A stretch of DNA of 27,633 nt, from the IMG/VR virus record IMGVR_UViG_2630968911_000005; one strand, 5' to 3'. Both the position numbers and the translations under genes were made by a program. Numbering within the stretch: the first letter of the stretch is position 1; the number at the start of each line of letters is the position of its first letter. The notes beneath the pieces are model-generated. The model was not told the origin of the DNA, ran no database searches, and saw nothing but the letters and a program-made list of their open reading frames with translations. The stretch is from a virus (taxonomy: Duplodnaviria > Heunggongvirae > Uroviricota > Caudoviricetes). This document shows positions 4,204 to 24,327 of the stretch, one piece after another.

Positions 4204-4395
4204 TTAAAGACCTGCCGGGATTTCGATATTATCCTGGTGAATAACTTTATCGACCGGGTAACAGTTACCGGGAATTTTCTGTTCGGTTGCTGCAGTCATA
4301 CACTCCTGCATTGTCCTGTGAACACTGACTGCAATATCAACTGGCTCTCCGGAAACAAGAAAAACTGTCAGAACAAGCACAAATGCTGAATTCAT
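4204..4395 (-). CDS. Small hypothetical protein with N-terminal signal-peptide-like hydrophobic segment
   Basis: 63-aa ORF (MNSAFVLVLTVFLVSG...). Its ATG overlaps the stop of the upstream gene (ATGA, 4392-4395), suggesting translational coupling. Confidence 0.5.
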   Translation of the reverse strand: MNSAFVLVLTVFLVSGEPVDIAVSVHRTMQECMTAATEQKIPGNCYPVDKVIHQDNIEIPAGL

Positions 4396-4580
4396 TGTGC
4401 ACATCCTTTTGGCATCAGACGTAAACGAGCCAGCATTGAAACAATGCATATTTTATTTAATAGCTCCCGTTCTTGTTTTCTCTTGTTAATGGCATCTTCA
4501 GTAAATACTGGGTTACTGATAGTGACACCAATTTCAAAACAACCTTCAGACGTATTAACGTTTGGTAATAACGTTTTCAT
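4392..4580 (-). CDS. Small hypothetical early-region protein (62 aa)
   Basis: ATG at 4578-4580 with GAGGA about 9 nt upstream. Sits where lambdoid phages carry kil/cIII-like small genes. Function not recognisable. Confidence 0.5.
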   Translation of the reverse strand: MKTLLPNVNTSEGCFEIGVTISNPVFTEDAINKRKQERELLNKICIVSMLARLRLMPKGCAQ

Positions 4581-4663
4581 TATCGCGTCCTCAACAATGA
4601 ATTTTGTGATGCAGTGCCTGGTGCCTCCAGGTGACGTTAACCAGTTAACAATTAACGCCGGAT

Positions 4664-4993
4664 ATGTGCTGTGGCAGCCGCATGTTCTGGTTCGATAAGT
4701 CTGACGAACGGGCGATATTCAGCGATATCAGAAAAGAAGGATACACATTACGCAATGGGAGACGCTTGATTATCAGCCCTGACATTATCGCAGATTTTCG
4801 TGCATTATCATTTGCAGACGCATCTTTTTCGATGGTTGTATTAGACCCTCCGCATCTTGAGAGTGTTGGTGATAACGCCTGGATGGGAAAGAAATATGGA
4901 CGGCTGAATAAAGATGCCTGGCGTGATGATTCGCGACAGAGATTTAAAGAAGCCTTTCGGGTGTTGAGGCCGCACGGCGTTCTGATTTTTTAA
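4664..4993 (+). pseudogene. Truncated DNA N6-adenine/N4-cytosine methyltransferase fragment (DPPH motif)
   Basis: ORF contains SFSMVVLDPPH followed by RVLRPHGVLIF, the pattern of amino-methyltransferase motif IV and a downstream block. It stops right after, with no continuation in any frame. Confidence 0.5.
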
Positions 4994-5607: not shown

Positions 5608-5891
5608 GCGAGATTAATTATCAGGAAGGGCATGAAACGGCGGGGCAAGCAAAACCAGTGGCATGGCGATATCGCTACGTGAAAAAAGGCGTTACGGACT
5701 TTCAGGGGAAGTAGTGGTCTGGTGACTGGAAATATGTACCGAAAAAAGAGGATTGTAACGACAGGCCGAACTATCAAATTCAGGCCTTATTCACTGCCTC
5801 ACCAGTCCCAGTTACATCAGAAGAACTGGTTAAAGCTGTGCACTTTTATGAACAACTAAAACGCGAAAATCCACCAACATCCGGCAACTAG
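5604..5891 (+). pseudogene. Small ORF with in-frame amber codon (TAG 5712-5714); 95-codon frame if read through
   Basis: Manual translation: MSEINYQEGHETAGQAKPVAWRYRYVKKGVTDFQGK-TAG-WSGDWKYVPKKEDCNDRPNYQIQALFTASPVPVTSEELVKAVHFYEQLKRENPPTSGN. The downstream segment reads like protein and has no stops for 58 codons. Confidence 0.3.
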
Positions 5892-6145
5892 ATTAATGGA
5901 TTAACTATGTCGGTTAAACGACCAGCCAACTGAAAAAGCGGAAACCTGATTACAGGTTGCCAGATAAGGCAATGAGCTACCTGGCGCGGAACGGACTGAT
6001 AAGTATGGGGAATGTTTTACGATGAACCTTTAGACTAAAGAGTTTGTAACGCTATGTAAGTGATTTTTTCTGGTTTAGATATTTATATGTCCGGCCAAAT
6101 TGAGGTGTGTTTAAATGTAATTGCACATTGATTGTAGGAGGAATA

Positions 6146-6325
6146 ATGAAAAACGCATTGCAGTTTTTGTTTGTTGCGTTCTGGTTGTTCGCATCATGTA
6201 TGCCCATCATCTTCACAGCAAGGTATATGGAAAAAGTTGATGTTTTGATATTAATATTTGGATATATAAATGCCCTTTTTTTAGGGGTGTTCATGGCGGT
6301 CATGTGCATTGAATACTGGCGGTAA
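6146..6325 (+). CDS. Small hydrophobic protein (59 aa, two predicted transmembrane segments)
   Basis: ATG at 6146 preceded by AGGAGG 6 nt upstream. Product MKNALQFLFVAFWLFASCMPIIFTARYMEKVDVLILIFGYINALFLGVFMAVMCIEYWR. Confidence 0.45.
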   Translation: MKNALQFLFVAFWLFASCMPIIFTARYMEKVDVLILIFGYINALFLGVFMAVMCIEYWR

Positions 6326-6659
6326 ATACAGCGAACTCCATTGGTTTAGTTGGATATTTACTGTGCTGGACAAAAACGGTTTGCGGGGAAATCTTAGTTA
6401 AGTAGAATGACTGCGGGTGCTTGAGGCTATCTGCCTCGGGCATGGACACCAACGGCAGATAGAGAAAAGCCCCAGTTAACATTACGCGTCCTGCAAGACG
6501 CTTAACATTAATCTGAGGCCAATTTCATGCTAGACACATGTAGGTTAGCCTCTTACGTGCCGAAAGGCACGGAGAAGCAGGCTATTGTTAACACCAAGCT
6601 GTAATGTCCCCTTTGAACCATTCTAAAATGTCCCCAGACAATTCTCTGGGGGATTTTTC

Positions 6660-7973
6660 ATGATCAAAGAGACTGTTACGATGAGTCATAAGGAACTCCA
6701 CCGACTTCAGATTATTCAGGAACAAGCTGCGGCACGCATTGGCATTTCTATTCGGCAGGTTAAACGTCTGGTGCAACGGTATAGAAATGAAGGGCCTTCT
6801 GGTCTGGTTTCCCACCGACGTGGAAAGCGTCCTAATAATTCCTTTTCTACTGAATTCAGAGCAACAGTAATTTCACTCCTCAAAGGCCGTTACGCTGATT
6901 TTGGACCTACGTTTGCGTGCGAAAAATTGCGCGAGATACACGGTTTATCTTTATCCGTTGAAACTCTCAGAAAGTGGATGATAGAAGAGGGGTTATGGCG
7001 TGAACGCCGTCGTAAAATTGCCCGTATATATCAACGCCGCATGCGACGACCATCTTACGGTGAACTGATCCAGATTGATGGCTCACCTCATGACTGGTTT
7101 GAAAATCGAGGCCCCAGATGTACACTGATCGTTTTCATTGATGATGCCACCAGTGCGTTGATGGCGTTGCGTTTTGTGCCTGCTGAAACAACCCGGGCTT
7201 ACATGGAAACCCTCCGGGGTTACCTTAATGATCATGGCGTACCGCTCGCTCTCTACTCTGATAGACACAGTATATTCAGGGTAAATAACCCAGAGCGGGA
7301 AGGTGAGCTGACCCAGTTCACTCGTGCGATAAAGACACTGGGCATCGAGCCAATCCATGCCAACAGCCCGCAGGCAAAAGGGCGGGTAGAGCGCGCCAAT
7401 CAGACACTACAGGACAGGCTGGTCAAAGAAATGCGGCTTCAGAATATCAGTGATATTGAAACAGCAAATGCATGGTTGCCGACCTTTATTGAAGCCTATA
7501 ACAACCGGTTCGCTACGTCGCCTCGTACTACTGATAATGCTCATCTTGATGTGCACCATTCTGAAGAGGAACTGGGTTATATCTTCAGCCTACAGGCGAA
7601 GCGCGTTCTGTCTAAAAATCTCACTTTCCAGTACAAAAGCAGTGCGTTTCAGGTACGCAGTGAGGGCCGGGGATATCGACTTAGGCATTCGGTTGTTACT
7701 GTATGCGAGAACTTTGACGGTGAAATTAACGTTCTGTATGACGGGAAAGCGCTGGGCTGGGAAAAGTATGTTGATGGCCCGGAGCCTATACCACTGGATG
7801 ATGAAAAGAGTGTCCATGAACGAGTGGATAATGCCCGTATTGATTTACGCTCAAAATACTATGTTAAACCTAAAGCTGACCATCCCTGGCTTACGCGCCG
7901 AACGCAAAGTCATCAGCAAGTTAAGCCCCCGAAGTTACCTAAAAAGAAGCCTGATCCCGATAAAAAAGATTGA
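6660..7973 (+). CDS. DDE transposase/integrase, rve superfamily with N-terminal HTH; IS481-family or ISNCY(IS1202-group)-like
   Basis: 437-aa ORF. N-terminal pattern RQVKRLVQRYRNEGPSGLVSHRRGKRP; catalytic D (IQIDGS), D (LYSDRHSIF) and E (GRVERANQTLQ). RBS GGGGGA upstream of ATG. Confidence 0.8.
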   Translation: MIKETVTMSHKELHRLQIIQEQAAARIGISIRQVKRLVQRYRNEGPSGLVSHRRGKRPNNSFSTEFRATVISLLKGRYADFGPTFACEKLREIHGLSLSVETLRKWMIEEGLWRERRRKIARIYQRRMRRPSYGELIQIDGSPHDWFENRGPRCTLIVFIDDATSALMALRFVPAETTRAYMETLRGYLNDHGVPLALYSDRHSIFRVNNPEREGELTQFTRAIKTLGIEPIHANSPQAKGRVERANQTLQDRLVKEMRLQNISDIETANAWLPTFIEAYNNRFATSPRTTDNAHLDVHHSEEELGYIFSLQAKRVLSKNLTFQYKSSAFQVRSEGRGYRLRHSVVTVCENFDGEINVLYDGKALGWEKYVDGPEPIPLDDEKSVHERVDNARIDLRSKYYVKPKADHPWLTRRTQSHQQVKPPKLPKKKPDPDKKD

Positions 7974-8005
7974 AACCAAGATCGATTCGGTTGAGTGCAT
8001 TGATC

Positions 8006-8896
8006 CTACCCACGTAATATGGACACAGGCCTAAGCGAGGTTCTGGTTTTCAATTGTTCCGGACTGAGGCCGCCACACCAACTGTGCCGCCGCCACCGAT
8101 TGTAATCACATTCGATATAATTAAATACCGTTGCCCGCATTATTTCCCGGCTGATAAAGTGTTTTCCATGGATACATTCCACTTTCAGCGAATGAAAGAA
8201 GCTTTCCACGCAGGCATTATCGTAGCAGCAACCTTTTGCGCTCATACTTCCACGCAGATTATGCCGCTTCAGTTGCGCCTGATAATCTGCTGAACAGTAC
8301 TGGCCTCCACGGTCCGTGTGAACGATAACGTTCCGGGGCCTCTTACGCCGCCACAGCGCCATCTGCAGGGCATCGCAGGCCAGTTGCGCCGTCATGCGTG
8401 GCGACATTGACCAGCCAATAACGGCACGTGACCACAGGTCAATGACCACTGCCAGATACAGCCAGCCTTCATCTGTACGTAAGTACGTGATGTCTCCTGC
8501 CCACTTCTGGTTCGGGCCACTGGCGTAAAAATCCTGCTCCAACAGATTTTCTGACACAGGCAGGCCGTGTGCGCGGTAGCTGACCGGGCTGAACTTCCGG
8601 GAGGCCTTTGCCCTCAGTCCCTGACGGCGCAGGCTTGCCGCCACGGTTTTTACGTTAAAGGGGTAACCCTGAGCACGCAGTTCATCCGTCAGGCGTGGGG
8701 CACCGTAACGCTGTTTTGACCGGGTAAAAGCCGCGAGGACAACGCTGTCGCAGTGTTGGCGGAACTGCTGACGCGTGCTTATCCTTGTCCGCCGCTGACA
8801 CCACGTATACCAGCCGCTGCGGGCCACCCGGAGCACGCGGCACATTGCTTTGATGCTGAACTCAGCCTGATGTTTTTCAATAAAGACATACTTCAT
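8006..8896 (-). CDS. insF: IS3 transposase OrfB (InsF), DDE integrase core
   Basis: Protein matches IS3 InsF as recalled ([21 protein letters not shown] ... DRGGQYCS ...) except at the extreme C-terminus. Confidence 0.9.
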
Positions 8897-9192
8897 TTCA
8901 GGCGCTTCGCGAAGTATGTCGCGGCCTTTTGGAGGATAGCCAGCTCTTCATCCCGTTCTGCCAGCTGGCGTTTGAGACGTGCAATCTCGGTAGACATCTC
9001 CAGTTCACGTTCAGAAGACGTCTGCTGATTTTGCTGTTTACTGCGCCAGTTGTAGAGCAGTGATTCATACAGGCTGAGTTCACGGGCTGCGGCAGTAACA
9101 CCGATGCGTTCAGCAAGCTTCAGGGCTTCACTGCGAAATTCAGGCGAATGCTGTTTACGGGGTTTTTTACTGGTTGATACTGTTTTTGTCAT
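8893..9192 (-). CDS. insE: IS3 transposase OrfA (InsE), HTH protein
   Basis: [32 protein letters not shown]... matches IS3 OrfA as recalled. The ORF track begins 3 codons upstream (9201). Confidence 0.9.
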
Positions 9193-9669
9193 GTGAGTCA
9201 CCTCTGACTGAGAGTTTACTCACTTAGCCGCGTGTCCACTATTGCTGGGTAAGATCACATATCCATTCATAGGGTAGATTCTTAAGTCGCGTTTCTGGTG
9301 TTCATTTTCGGGTGGTTTGTTACTTGTTTTACCGGGGATATGCCAGAAACGCGCTGAGTCAGTCTGGGCGGTGCGCGTAATGAGGCGTTATGGTAAATAG
9401 CCTATGCTAATGTCCGCTAAGAGCAAGAAGCGGAAGTTGGCAGTTTTGTGGACTGTCCCCACAAAAGTGACTACAGAAATAGTTGCAATTCATAATTGAT
9501 CATGGGTTGTCAGTTAAACTCGTGGCGATTTAAATAGACTAATTGGGAGTGCGTCCATTACTTATATCTTGTAATGTTAACTATCAGAAATGATACAAAG
9601 ATAATATGTCTTTAAAGAAAAGGCTGATGGCGAAAAGTGGCCCGATGAGGGCCACAATACGGCTGTCAC

Positions 9670-10002
9670 TTAGACGTAAATATCAATGGTGCCAGCGGTA
9701 TTTGTATCGTCTTTTTTCTCTTCTTTTTTATCAGGCTGAACTGTCGCGTCTTCATTCTTTTTCTCTGCCTGCTGCCTTAACAACTGCTCCAGTTGAGCCC
9801 AGAGGCTTTCAATTTGCTTCTGTACCAATGCAGCCATTTCTTTTTTCTGCTGTGTCGTCATCCCCTCTTCCGATGAGATTTTCCCAAGCTTTTCAGTCAG
9901 CACCTGAATTTGTCTTGTGATTTTGGCTATTTCTGATGTTCCTTCCGGGGCGGAGTTGTTTGAAATAACGGTTGAGGTATTTCCCTGAATTGTGACAGAC
10001 AT
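9670..10002 (-). CDS. flxA: FlxA-like protein (FliA-regulated prophage gene)
   Basis: 110-aa product matches E. coli K-12 FlxA as recalled. RBS AAGGAG upstream. Confidence 0.9.
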   Translation of the reverse strand: MSVTIQGNTSTVISNNSAPEGTSEIAKITRQIQVLTEKLGKISSEEGMTTQQKKEMAALVQKQIESLWAQLEQLLRQQAEKKNEDATVQPDKKEEKKDDTNTAGTIDIYV

Positions 10003-10025
10003 AGATTTCTCCTTTTAAAAAAGCA

Positions 10026-10052
10026 CTATCGGCATGCACAAAAAAATCTTTA
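10026..10052 (-). promoter_or_regulatory. Sigma-28 (FliA) class 3 flagellar-type promoter for flxA
   Basis: Minus strand reads TAAA-N15-GCCGATAG (consensus TAAA-N15-GCCGATAA), ending about 24 nt upstream of the flxA ATG. Confidence 0.6.
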
Positions 10053-10204
10053 ATCGTATTTCTTGTGTCATTAATTGTTTGATGTTCAGATTGTTTTCCT
10101 CGCGGGCTGGCGCGCCTCAGAAAGTAAAGCTTGTTGACAGGGGTAAACGTTCGGCAATAATTTTCTGCCGCATGCGGGTGTTGCATAAAACGTGTTACGT
10201 TCCT

Positions 10205-10510
10205 TTATCGACAGGTCAGGTCACCGCTCACCCGCCGACGAGAAAGCAACACTGACATGCTAAAGCAAAAAATAGATGAATAAGTTGAGTTGTGCATATG
10301 TAGCCTGACCGTCACAAAGTATATGGTGTCTGTACCAGTAAGATGATGGCCGGACTCTTTAAAAACGAGCTGACCTGCACAATACAGGATGGACTTAGCA
10401 ATGGCTGCTCCTGGCACAAAGCGGACAGTGATCACCGTTCTTACGACTACTTTCTGACTTCCTTCGTGACTTGCCCTAAGCATGTTGTAGTGCGATACTT
10501 GTAATGACAT
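10205..10510 (-). CDS. ydfV: Hypothetical protein (YdfV-like position and length, 101 aa); doubtful gene
   Basis: ORF divergent from relB, same position and length as K-12 ydfV. No clear RBS or motifs. Confidence 0.3.
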   Translation of the reverse strand: MSLQVSHYNMLRASHEGSQKVVVRTVITVRFVPGAAIAKSILYCAGQLVFKESGHHLTGTDTIYFVTVRLHMHNSTYSSIFCFSMSVLLSRRRVSGDLTCR

Positions 10511-10523
10511 TTGTAATTACAAG
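10471..10523 (+). promoter_or_regulatory. relBE promoter (TTGCCC-N17-GATACT) with overlapping operator repeats (relO)
   Basis: CTTGTAATGACATTTGTAATTACAAG at 10498-10523 has repeated TTGTAAT hexads with dyad symmetry, just upstream of relB. Confidence 0.6.
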
Positions 10524-10534
10524 AGGTGTAAGAC

Positions 10535-10774
10535 ATGGGTAGCATTAACCTGCGTATTGACGATGAACTTAAAGCGCGTTCTTACGCCGCGCTTGAAAAA
10601 ATGGGTGTAACTCCTTCTGAAGCGCTTCGTCTCATGCTCGAGTATATCGCTGACAATGAACGCTTGCCGTTCAAACAGACACTCCTGAGTGATGAAGATG
10701 CTGAACTTGTGGAGATAGTGAAAGAACGGCTTCGTAATCCTAAGCCAGTACGTGTGACGCTGGATGAACTCTGA
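10535..10774 (+). CDS. relB: RelB antitoxin
   Basis: 79-aa product matches K-12 RelB as recalled (MGSINLRIDDELKARSYA...). Stop overlaps relE start (TGATG). Confidence 0.95.
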   Translation: MGSINLRIDDELKARSYAALEKMGVTPSEALRLMLEYIADNERLPFKQTLLSDEDAELVEIVKERLRNPKPVRVTLDEL

Positions 10775-11061
10775 TGGCGTATTTTCTGGATTTTGACGAG
10801 CGGGCACTAAAGGAATGGCGAAAGCTGGGCTCGACGGTACGTGAACAGTTGAAAAAGAAGCTGGTTGAAGTACTTGAGTCACCCCGGATTGAAGCAAACA
10901 AGCTCCGTGGTATGCCTGATTGTTACAAGATTAAGCTCCGGTCTTCAGGCTATCGCCTTGTATACCAGGTTATAGACGAGAAAGTTGTCGTTTTCGTGAT
11001 TTCTGTTGGGAAAAGAGAACGCTCGGAAGTATATAGCGAGGCGGTCAAACGCATTCTCTGA
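10774..11061 (+). CDS. relE: RelE mRNA interferase toxin
   Basis: 95-aa product matches K-12 RelE as recalled (MAYFLDFDERALKEW...). Confidence 0.95.
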   Translation: MAYFLDFDERALKEWRKLGSTVREQLKKKLVEVLESPRIEANKLRGMPDCYKIKLRSSGYRLVYQVIDEKVVVFVISVGKRERSEVYSEAVKRIL

Positions 11062-11132
11062 ACCAAAGCATGACATCTCTGTTTCGCACCGAAGGTGACA
11101 CTTCTGCTTTGCGTTGACAGGAGAAGCAGGCT

Positions 11133-11288
11133 ATGAAGCAGCAAAAGGCGATGTTAATCGCCCTGATCGTCATCTGTTTAACCGTCATAGTGACGGCACT
11201 GGTAACGAGGAAAGACCTCTGCGAGGTACGAATCCGAACCGGCCAGACGGAGGTCGCTGTCTTCACAGCTTACGAACCTGAGGAGTAA
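11133..11288 (+). CDS. hokD: Hok-family small membrane toxin HokD (RelF), 51 aa
   Basis: Manual translation MKQQKAMLIALIVICLTVIVTALVTRKDLCEVRIRTGQTEVAVFTAYEPEE. Below the ORF-track size cutoff. RBS GGAGAAG upstream. Confidence 0.85.
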   Translation: MKQQKAMLIALIVICLTVIVTALVTRKDLCEVRIRTGQTEVAVFTAYEPEE

Positions 11289-14552: not shown

Positions 14553-14852
14553 AAAAATTCCTTAATACTGATAACTTGGCGCACTATACACACGTTCCTG
14601 AAGAAAGCTATAGTTTTTTGATGGGGTTGAAGATGGCTGGATGTCTAAAATAAACATTGCTTCATATGTTCAACTATGCGTTAATGATTGCGTCGGTTTG
14701 AAGAACAGACGATATACGAAGTAGTTTACTAAAGCAGTTCTCATTTCAGGTGTTATTCACTTATTCCTTCTTTGAGTCTCTCCAATTAAGTACGAAGTCG
14801 TTTCTGTTATGCAAACCATTTATGCCGAAAGGCTCAAGTTAAGGAATGTAGA

Positions 14853-15068
14853 ATGTCAAATAAAATGACTGGTTTAGTAAAATGGTTTAACGCTGATAAA
14901 GGTTTCGGCTTTATTTCTCCTGTTGATGGTAGTAAAGATGTGTTTGTGCATTTTTCTGCGATTCAGAATGATAATTATCGAACCTTATTTGAAGGTCAAA
15001 AGGTTACCTTCTCTATAGAGAGTGGTGCTAAAGGTCCTGCAGCAGCAAATGTCATCATTACTGATTAA
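14853..15068 (+). CDS. cspB: Cold-shock protein CspB
   Basis: 71-aa product with RNP motifs (KGFGFI, VFVHF). Long AT-rich 5' leader upstream. Confidence 0.92.
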
Positions 15069-15347
15069 AATTCATCGCTCGTCTGTATACGATAACGAAG
15101 AAGGCTGATGCCTGAGTAGAGATACGGACAGAGTAGTGAATATTGGATCTCTTTAATAAAAAGTAAGGAGGTCCAATACATGAAACAATGGCTAGCATAT
15201 TTGGCAAAATCTTAATCAGGAAAAGTATGCTAACCATTGTGGTGAAGTGCAGGTTTGCTGCATGAATAGTTTTACAGCAGAAGCTAACTGCTGGCATGGC
15301 AAAACAAAGTGCGTAAGTGGATGACTCCCACAAAAAGCACCACAATC

Positions 15348-17377: not shown

Positions 17378-17739
17378 GGTAATATTAAATCGGAACATTT
17401 ACATCGCGGAATGTAAAATTTAAATAAAAAGGACTCTTCCATGAGCCAAAATTCCTGAAATCTTAAGGGTAAGATAAAAGGTCTTAATCAGAATGACACG
17501 TTTTATTAATAAATAAAGCTATTCTTTCATTGCTGTGTTTTTCTTTACAAAAGTAATCCTTGCTATGGGTGGTTAATCATGCGTTAATGGTGTTCTGGTT
17601 TGTTACAAATTTATCTGAAGCAGTCATTGTTATAATTTTATTATTTGTACCTCTTGAGATTTCCTTGTTGGTTTTTCTCTCTGATATTTTTTTTCGGACC
17701 ATTCTGCCCAAGGGCTAATTTCTTCAAAAGGTAATAATT

Positions 17740-17952
17740 ATGTCTAACAAAATGACTGGTTTAGTGAAATGGTTTAACCCTGAAAAAGGTTTTGGTTTCA
17801 TCACGCCGAAAGATGGCAGCAAAGATGTGTTTGTCCATTTCTCAGCAATTCAGAGCAACGATTTCAAAACATTAACTGAGAATCAGGAAGTTGAATTTGG
17901 TATTGAGAACGGACCTAAAGGTCCTGCCGCTGTTCATGTAGTGGCGCTTTGA
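17740..17952 (+). CDS. cspI: Cold-shock protein CspI
   Basis: 70-aa cold-shock-domain protein ([34 protein letters not shown]...). RBS AAGGTAA. About 350-nt AT-rich leader. Confidence 0.92.
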
Positions 17953-18156
17953 GGTAGACAATATTACAAACCATATTCACTTTAGATGCCCGTGTTGTCA
18001 TGGTTCCCAGTATAGAACATCATCTTTTGATGTTTCTGACATGAATCCTTTCGGGGCAAAATGTATCTTTTGTAAATCAATGATGATTACATTTGATAAT
18101 ATTTCACAATACTTAAATGCCAGCCGTCTGTCGTTGGATTTAAAAAAGTGAAAATG

Positions 18157-23752: not shown

Positions 23753-24327
23753 TGGCATTCAGAATGAGTGAACAACCACGGACCATAACAATTTATAATC
23801 TGCTGGCCGGAACTAATGAATTTATTGGTGAAGGTGATGCATATATTCCGCCTCATACAGGTCTGCCAGCAAACAGTACCGATATTGCACCGCCAGATAT
23901 TCCGGCTGGCTTCGTGGCTGTTTTCAACAGTGATGAGTCATCGTGGCATCTCGTTGAAGATCATCGGGGTAAAACGGTTTATGACGTGGCTTCCGGCGAC
24001 GCGTTATTTATTTCTGAACTCGGTCCGTTACCGAAAAATGTTACCTGGTTATCGCCGGAAGGGGAGTTTCAGAAGTGGAACGGCACAGCCTGGGTGAAGG
24101 ATACGGAAGCAGAAAAACTGTTCCGGATCCGGGAGGCGGAAGAAACAAAAAACAACCTGATGCAGGTAGCCAGTGAGCATATTGCGCCGCTTCAGGATGC
24201 TGCAGATCTGGAAATTGCAACGGAGGAAGAAATCTCGTTGCTGGAAGCATGGAAAAAGTATCGGGTATTGCTGAACCGTGTTGATACGTCAACTGCACAG
24301 GATATTGAATGGCCAGCACTGCCGTAG
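23752..24327 (+). CDS. tfaQ: Tail fibre assembly protein (Tfa)
   Basis: 191-aa ORF overlapping the stf stop (TAATG). N-terminus [26 protein letters not shown]. Confidence 0.85.

Follow-up and report, generated by a model that had tools for sequence, protein, structure and literature searches.

Is the short open reading frame (ORF) at positions 6146-6325 of IMG/VR virus record IMGVR_UViG_2630968911_000005 (+ strand, stop codon included) a gene, and if so, what could its 59-residue product do for the prophage that carries it? The stretch of DNA that we analyzed, referred to here as the window, comprises the 27,633 nucleotides (nt) of this Caudoviricetes record, and corresponds to an Escherichia coli Qin-type lambdoid prophage that is 99.5-100% identical to the one in strain ATCC 8739. 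An original prediction, made from the letters alone, had read the ORF as an unannotated two-helix membrane protein with a consensus Shine-Dalgarno (SD) sequence in a prophage accessory region, and had proposed that it might be a toxin, an exclusion factor or transposase-linked cargo. We found that the first half of the question is best answered by a diverged paralog: judging from this comparison, the ORF is very probably a real gene. For the second half, the reading that we favor, with a probability of roughly 55%, is a genuine moron-like gene for an inner-membrane hairpin protein with a prophage accessory function.

The reading frame and its diverged paralog

The ORF opens with an ATG at 6146-6148, closes with a TAA at 6323-6325 and encodes MKNALQFLFVAFWLFASCMPIIFTARYMEKVDVLILIFGYINALFLGVFMAVMCIEYWR (59 amino acids, aa). 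An AGGAGG SD sequence can be read from the sequence at 6136-6141 (+ strand), as had been predicted; the gap to the ATG had been given as 6 nt, but the spacer (AATA) measures 4 nt, a spacing that is still workable, and the ATCC 25922 allele carries AGGGGG instead (6139 A>G). The product is very hydrophobic (grand average of hydropathy, GRAVY, 1.27; rank 2 among the 113 ATG-initiated ORFs of at least 45 aa in the window), with hydrophobic stretches at residues ~4-25 and ~33-55 (candidate transmembrane segments TM1 and TM2) that are separated by a short charged loop (R26-D32) and followed by the C-terminal residues IEYWR. AlphaFold2, run with a shallow alignment, predicts helices at residues 2-26 and 28-58 (mean predicted local distance difference test score, pLDDT, 73). 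The sequence, its hydropathy and the structure model thus bear out a 59-aa frame with two hydrophobic, predicted helical segments.

Taken by themselves, the signals within the window lie within chance expectation (AGGAGG-N3-9-ATG occurs twice, against 1.1 expected, and when the local AT-rich block of 372 nt is shuffled, 7% of the shuffled sequences contain an ATG-initiated ORF of at least 59 aa), and the case for a gene rests on the divergent paralog. This paralog (MRKILMYLCISIWIVISCVPIILTSEYLTEASIMALMFGHANALCIGVFISIIYIECWR; L004:6001-6180, in E. coli KE48), which we first met in plasmid records, is also exactly 59 aa long, starts and stops at the same positions as the ORF product and aligns with it over the full length at 41% identity (tblastn E=3e-10 in 7.3 Gb); its SD sequence is weaker (AGGGA, 9 nt before the ATG). 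The two share 58% of their nucleotides at first, 71% at second and 47.5% at third codon positions, and the Nei-Gojobori method (proportions of nonsynonymous and synonymous differences, pN 0.34 and pS 0.72) gives a ratio of nonsynonymous to synonymous rates (dN/dS) of ~0.19, with dS saturated. In a neutral simulation in which the 73 nucleotide differences were placed at random over the 177 nucleotides (20000 trials), the frame stayed open with P=0.025 and kept at least 24 identical residues with P=0.004, and the observed BLOSUM62 score (153 vs. 40 ± 18 in the simulation) was reached in 0/20000 trials. In an alignment of eight sequences from both subfamilies, 19 positions do not vary, including W13, S17, C18, P20, I21, I22, T24, G39, N42, A43, L44, E56, W58 and R59. 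Because of the codon-position pattern and the outcome of the neutral simulation, we conclude that the ORF has, as far as two sequences can tell, been under long-term purifying selection at the protein level. Comparison with a diverged copy can in this way validate a small ORF where in-sequence signals alone cannot.

The same comparison bears on the opposite reading, in which the ORF is non-functional, being either a chance frame in AT-rich filler or the shadow of a true feature on the other strand, namely the antisense 85-aa ORF at 6052-6309 (-). The in-window statistics fit such a reading, and so do the absence of a call by the Prokaryotic Genome Annotation Pipeline (PGAP), the annotation of the antisense ORF in phage record PhiR42_1, the exclusively non-synonymous recent polymorphisms, and the truncated and frameshifted variants found in databases. 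On the other side, the paralog comparison rejects neutrality, the start and stop positions are the same in both subfamilies, and the sense frame alone is open in the paralog, where the window's antisense ORF is broken by 5 stops; moreover, the two opposed frames have their third codon (wobble) position in common, the usual source of shadow ORFs, and this accounts for the one seen here. We therefore find a non-functional ORF scarcely credible.

Within the ORF's own subfamily, the frame is intact in 86/86 fetched loci, which comprise six alleles that differ at five sites, all non-synonymous (A16V, V31I, I37M, Y40H and L44I) with 0 synonymous. The database variants of 55 aa and of 83-84 aa depart from the 59-aa sequence at a homopolymer of seven T residues (6276-6282, + strand, codons 44-46, read from the sequence), and may reflect either genuine frameshifting or slippage, or a homopolymer sequencing error. 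Some database records carry a 72-aa form that starts at GTG 6107; since no in-frame start precedes the ATG of the paralog, the 59-aa form is favored over it.

Distribution and annotation of the family

The 241-nt ORF region occurs in 1568/5426 complete E. coli genomes (~29%) at 97.5-100% identity, with the standard strains CFT073, ATCC 25922 and ATCC 8739 among the carriers, and the paralog occurs in 1045/5426 (~19%). The ORF is thus conserved in related elements, whereas the original prediction had named a lack of such conservation, together with a lack of expression, as what would count against it. Its description of the ORF as unannotated holds for RefSeq, where PGAP places no feature on the ORF or the paralog in any of the 70 RefSeq rows listed by two ORF-centred queries (40 rows for the ORF), but not for GenBank and UniProt, many of whose records list the ORF as 'hypothetical protein' or 'membrane protein'. 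Phage record PhiR42_1 annotates the antisense shadow ORF in its place (L005 5907-6158), and phages ON470619 and ON470612 label a feature over the ORF 'hornerin'.

In the protein databases, the ORF product comes from E. coli and Shigella alone. An exhaustive hidden Markov model (HMM) search of 1.84 billion protein representatives recovered two subfamilies only, all from E. coli or Shigella; two long proteins with repeated hydrophobic matches in this search were dismissed as compositional. Shigella flexneri was the sole match among GTDB species representatives, and word-index searches together with tblastn of phage and plasmid collections, using both proteins as queries, yielded no third subfamily; a third member was also sought upstream of hok in a prophage that lacks the AT-rich module described below, and none was found there. 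Searches of Pfam, NCBIfam, PHROGs and PADLOC at E<=10 assigned the ORF product to no family, and the PADLOC defence models matched neither subfamily at this threshold. Two marginal matches, DUF4212 (E=0.07) and phrog_6298 (E=0.12), were rejected as far below threshold. A sequence profile search of the PDB gave no match to the ORF product, and Foldseek against BFVD and the PDB gave nothing with E<1. A search across 8 million papers did not find the peptide strings, and the upstream ORF is not mentioned in the Hok survey preprint. As far as these sequence searches reach, the ORF founds a tiny orphan family of two subfamilies that is confined to E. coli and Shigella.

The AT-rich module and the predicted membrane protein

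The ORF is the sole cargo of an AT-rich module of ~370 bp (GC content 36%, and 37% in the ORF itself and 32% in the paralog, vs. 45.6% in the window), which represents extra DNA with sharp boundaries that is absent from the hok loci L002 and L003 of related prophages. Its left part, a conserved AT-rich non-coding stretch at 6005-6135 (+), presumably holds the promoter and 5' untranslated region (UTR). On the right, the spacer from the ORF stop to the hok promoter (6326-6395, +) contains the mosaic boundary at ~6368-6395; in hok loci without the ORF, homology begins at 6368 (L003) and at 6395 (L002). Divergence between prophages is ~10% left of ~6029 and in the hok leader and 1-2% between 6029 and 6400, and homology to the paralog locus extends from ~6010 to ~30 nt beyond the ORF stop. 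Being a single-gene insert of foreign composition with sharp boundaries, the module looks like a moron in its anatomy. The definition of a moron includes deviant composition and a promoter and terminator of its own (PMC3594210); since neither a consensus promoter nor a terminator was found here, this defining feature is unconfirmed.

A relaxed promoter scan returned weak candidates only (e.g. CTGATA-16-TACGAT, with a transcription start site near 6030), no hairpin with a U-tract follows the ORF stop, and the 5' region of the ORF folds no better than shuffles do (z-scores -0.9 to +0.7), so that the SD sequence is not occluded. At the module's left edge lies a palindrome (CTTTAGACTAAAG / CTTTAGaCTAAAG, window 6028-6040) whose counterpart in the paralog (CTTCAGtCTGAAG, L004 ~5878-5893) has both arms changed and the symmetry kept. 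This palindrome may act as a hairpin at the 5' terminus or as a binding site for a protein, but a single covarying pair seen in two lineages does not suffice for a decision; a conserved leader RNA structure was rejected, given a consensus fold of only -12 kcal/mol and a single compensatory pair in this small palindrome. Upstream of the ORF, the minus strand carries a terminator-like hairpin at 5943-5958 (AACCTGTAATCAGGTT then TCCGCTTTTT), with no obvious minus-strand gene to terminate, in surroundings that are variable between prophages.

In the reading that we favor, the 59-residue helical hairpin would insert in the inner membrane, most likely N-in/C-in with its short neutral-to-acidic loop in the periplasm; this topology is suggested by K2 (or R2K3) and R59 on the outer sides of the helices, together with the charge of the loop. 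Transcription would come from a weak local promoter or from read-through of the early-right operon, and the product would act within the membrane via helix-helix contacts, binding either another copy of itself or a membrane protein of the host or of a phage; the conserved W13, S17-C18-x-P20, G39, N42-A43-L44 and C-terminal IE-x-WR would plausibly make these contacts. As for the role, analogy suggests, tentatively, an envelope-level accessory function, which might consist of blocking the DNA entry of superinfecting phages or of modulating a host membrane protein; we regard such a role as possible, at odds well short of even. The paralog has survived intact where its neighbouring genes decayed to fragments. 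If the product does turn out to be an exclusion factor or membrane effector, the accessory repertoire of E. coli would gain one more prophage-encoded small membrane protein; in other respects, the ORF is an ordinary object, a hydrophobic phage ORFan of narrow distribution and a new, very small family in a familiar class.

Several points weigh against this favored reading. The recent alleles carry no sign of purifying selection and are uninformative, and the non-coding flanks of the module match the ORF in conservation, so that the near-identity of ORF copies reflects recent spread. The estimate of constraint is one comparison between two diverged lineages with saturated dS, and the conserved residues are not clustered on one helical face (P=0.65 and P=0.93), which lends no support to a specific interaction surface. 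The searches described above did not connect the ORF product, by homology or by fold, to any exclusion protein that has been characterised. Finally, a strict scan of 5800-6700 found no consensus sigma-70 promoter, and no intrinsic terminator flanks the ORF on the + strand, where the sole terminator-like site (6631-6652) lies inside an insertion sequence (IS).

Known systems offer partial likenesses to the inner-membrane hairpin that we favor. T4 Imm and other small multi-helix phage exclusion proteins are short inner-membrane proteins with two hydrophobic helices that act against incoming phage DNA; the likeness to Imm is architectural only, with no detectable homology, and Imm is larger and comes from a virulent phage. 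The closest functional analogue may be gp15 of HK97, a moron-encoded, YebO-related inner-membrane protein that the prophage expresses and that keeps the genomes of other phages from entering (PMC3594210). Like gp15, the ORF product is a small protein whose gene sits on a short lambdoid-phage insert that deviates in base composition; unlike gp15, which is encoded in the tail operon, it comes from the nin/hok region with no promoter or terminator demonstrable by scan, and neither Pfam, PHROGs nor the exhaustive HMM search reveals any sequence relationship between the two. DicB (62 aa), which like the ORF product is a small accessory protein encoded by Qin, acts on inner-membrane proteins and thereby shields the host against phages (PMC6832061), but it is soluble, operates via MinC and ManYZ, has no sequence relationship to the ORF product and is encoded in the other prophage arm. 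Ribosome profiling (Ribo-seq) of CFT073 is reported to have yielded 15 'smemORFs', unannotated genes for small membrane proteins (bioRxiv 10.64898/2026.09.28.754932). The ORF resembles these smemORFs in being short, island- or prophage-borne, AUA-rich, narrowly distributed and missed by annotation, and CFT073 carries it on the minus strand of NZ_CP058222.1 at ~3,050,251-3,050,430, 260 nt upstream of hokD; by the coordinates printed there, SMP3 and SMP7 differ from the ORF in length and position.

We also considered whether the product could be a membrane-damaging toxin, i.e. a type I-like or holin-like pore former whose expression would depolarise or permeabilise the inner membrane, serving abortive infection, post-segregational killing or lysis timing. 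The product is small and very hydrophobic, both subfamilies keep a mid-membrane Asn42 and the small-residue spacing G39xxxA43xxxG47, the ORF adjoins another membrane toxin gene, hok, and its rare codons and weak promoter signals would fit tightly limited expression. However, type I toxin mRNAs such as that of hok typically have a structured leader, and no significant mRNA structure hides the SD sequence here (z -0.9 to +0.7, as above); the type I toxins known from E. coli have a single helix and a length of 19-51 aa; and there is no antisense promoter/terminator pair. The original prediction had proposed to look for a neighbouring antitoxin or antisense RNA: no Rfam family falls on the ORF, no convincing minus-strand promoter was found and no ORF-specific antitoxin is evident, the sok match at 6415-6586 belonging to hok. 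The ORF lies outside the lysis cassette (essD-ydfR-rrrQ is ~8 kb downstream in reference Qin), the C-terminus offers only EYWR and no charged holin tail, no PHROGs holin family matches, and the paralog persists intact in a decayed remnant without a recognisable partner. We consider a toxin unlikely, although among the possible roles it ranks next after the envelope function.

Like Hok/Gef (hokD in the same prophage), the ORF product is a small hydrophobic, putatively inner-membrane peptide of ~50-60 aa from a lambdoid prophage, and the two genes are immediate neighbours. Hok has one helix and a periplasmic tail with a conserved Cys, and is made from a highly structured mRNA that is controlled by mok/sok/fbi and has an Rfam-detectable leader, whereas the ORF has two predicted helices, an exposed strong SD sequence and no significant leader structure. 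No Hok/Gef match to the ORF product was found in Pfam/NCBIfam even at E<=10, and 11133-11285 is the only part of the window that tblastn matched to HokD.

The invariant S17-C18 pair (FASC and VISC in the two subfamilies) raises another topology, in which L14-F15-A16-S17|C18 would be a lipobox and the mature product a 42-residue lipoprotein with one C-terminal TM helix. Read by hand, K2 (or R2K3) followed by an uncharged stretch fits a loose PROSITE-type lipobox pattern, and the product would then be of a kind comparable to Cor and Llp, phage lipoproteins that block receptors. Compared with the lipobox [LVI][ASTVI][GAS]C at the end of a signal peptide and ahead of a polar mature region, FASC and VISC fit loosely only. 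Set against this topology, a Ser at -1 with Phe or Val at -3 makes an atypical lipobox; seven hydrophobic residues continue beyond Cys18 (MPIIFTA), so that the segment resembles a full 22-residue membrane helix; the putative signal-peptide residues L5, L8 and W13 are conserved between paralogs of 41% identity, which is unusual for signal peptides; and no homology to the Cor or Llp families was found in PHROGs or Pfam. A lipoprotein is accordingly quite unlikely in our estimation, and the hairpin remains the topology that we prefer.

The hok neighbourhood and the prophage

Directly downstream of the module lies an orphaned hok mRNA leader (the hok/sok/mok regulatory region, 6400-6585, +), which ends at the 'AU' of the hok AUG and has a putative hok promoter (TTGCGG 6381-6386 and TAGAAT 6403-6408, +; hexamers read from the sequence). 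The only Rfam match near the ORF, RF01794 ('sok'; 6415-6586, 104 bits), is on the hok-mRNA strand, and its model ends in the hok AUG, where the window reads AUU; the match marks the hok leader and not specifically the antisense Sok RNA. The 186-nt leader is 92-98% identical to DNA directly upstream of hokD / Hok-Gef coding sequences (CDSs) in thousands of genomes, and the ancestral order, seen in CFT073, ATCC 25922 and a Qin-like fragment filed as Klebsiella oxytoca, is the ORF, 75 nt, the hok promoter and leader, and hokD.

In the window, this order is interrupted by an inserted block of ~4.5 kb (6586-11119) between the hok leader and the hok CDS, bounded by a 15-nt direct repeat, GGAGAAGCAGGCTAT (6571-6585 and 11120-11134). 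The hokD CDS (11133-11288, +; 100% identity to HokD by tblastn) thus lies downstream of relE, cut off from its own leader, while in loci without the block the ORF, leader and hokD are contiguous. The block contains an ISNCY-type transposase (6660-7973, +) and, just after that ORF, an IS3 copy of 1257 bp (~8001-9257, -; orfA 8893-9201, orfB 8006-8896) that is absent from the ATCC 8739 copy, together with ydfW, flxA, ydfV and relBE. This insertion would explain why hokD (relF) of K-12 follows relBE without sok, mok or a leader. Across the fetched loci, the hok leader is directly downstream of the ORF in 86/86, hok is intact ~260 nt downstream in 44/86, and the ISNCY-type IS is present in 40/86. 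Because 44/86 loci combine the ORF with an intact hok and no IS, and because the insertion falls exactly at the start of hok, the transposase is a later arrival and not a partner of the ORF. The IS begins only at 6586, 260 nt beyond the end of the ORF, and the proposal of transposase-linked cargo is abandoned.

The paralog sits in a different setting, a decayed prophage remnant between ttcA and uspF (L004 4984-7169; also L091-L098), where an integrase C-terminal fragment, a hok pseudogene fragment and fragments of a sitD-like ABC-3 permease surround a paralog that is itself intact. The hok remnant (VTKKDLHQVRI*GGQMEVDIYT, L004 6236-6301) begins 55 nt after the paralog stop and contains an in-frame stop; since a hok remnant thus follows the paralog too, the linkage of ORF and hok is old. 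In one strain, a full sitABCD-like operon adjoins the paralog element.

Such constant adjacency raises the possibility that the ORF is a partner of hok/sok, whose protein would modulate the insertion or toxicity of Hok, or whose transcription would read into the hok leader and regulate it. In favor of this idea, the hok leader lies 75 nt downstream of the ORF in 86/86 loci, the 41%-identical paralog also precedes a hok remnant, and no terminator separates the ORF from the hok promoter. The linkage is nevertheless not obligatory: hok loci with leaders of 93-98% identity occur without the ORF, the mosaic breakpoints (6368/6395) lie between the ORF and the hok promoter and so allow independent exchange, and the ORF is intact where hok is disabled, be it severed by the 4.5-kb insertion (40/86) or deleted and stopped, as at the paralog locus. 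Descent accounts for the linkage, the position being shared among syntenic lambdoid genomes, and we judge a partnership improbable. More specifically, the ORF protein and Hok might form an anciently linked two-peptide membrane module, in which the hairpin would gate, anchor or neutralise Hok, or in which transcription of the ORF would reprogramme folding of the leader. We hold this to be distinctly improbable; were it true, a type I toxin system thought to be under RNA control only would gain a further layer of control at the protein level. The constant hok/sok adjacency does offer a concrete hypothesis that is cheaply testable.

Placement of the ORF in a prophage accessory region was confirmed: it lies between the nin-like genes and hok/Q of a Qin-type lambdoid prophage. 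The gene order in ATCC 8739 is integrase, exonuclease, dicB ... methyltransferase, DUF7167 pseudogene, ORF, ISNCY transposase, ydfW, flxA, ydfV, relBE, hokD, rem, ydfU and Q. Relative to this Qin, the window copy lacks 3.8 kb (L001 3923-7761; junction at window ~4661-4664) that comprise dicF, ydfABC, dicA, dicC, a ydaT-like gene, a replication gene, DUF977 and the 5' end of the methyltransferase gene, leaving dicB (4392-4580, -) without its regulator. Since the immunity and early-right promoter region is deleted in the window, any expression of the ORF here must start locally. K-12 MG1655 lacks the ORF through a deletion that joins ydfX to ydfW, and K-12 ribosome-profiling data are for this reason uninformative on the ORF.

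Two further observations concern the wider prophage. The Qin-like fragment filed under Klebsiella oxytoca (L099; NZ_CP069920.1, 'plasmid unnamed9', 9.5 kb, linear) consists of an E. coli Qin-like prophage stretch (ORF, hokD, rem, Q, cspF/B and lysis genes), and its gene products bear the same RefSeq protein accessions as those of E. coli ATCC 8739; the record probably represents contamination or a mis-binned contig and not a Klebsiella plasmid. The other Rfam matches in the window, at 14692-15084, 17594-17979 and 24095-24293, are two cspA-type thermoregulator leaders (cspB and cspI region) and an IS009 RNA, as expected in Qin.

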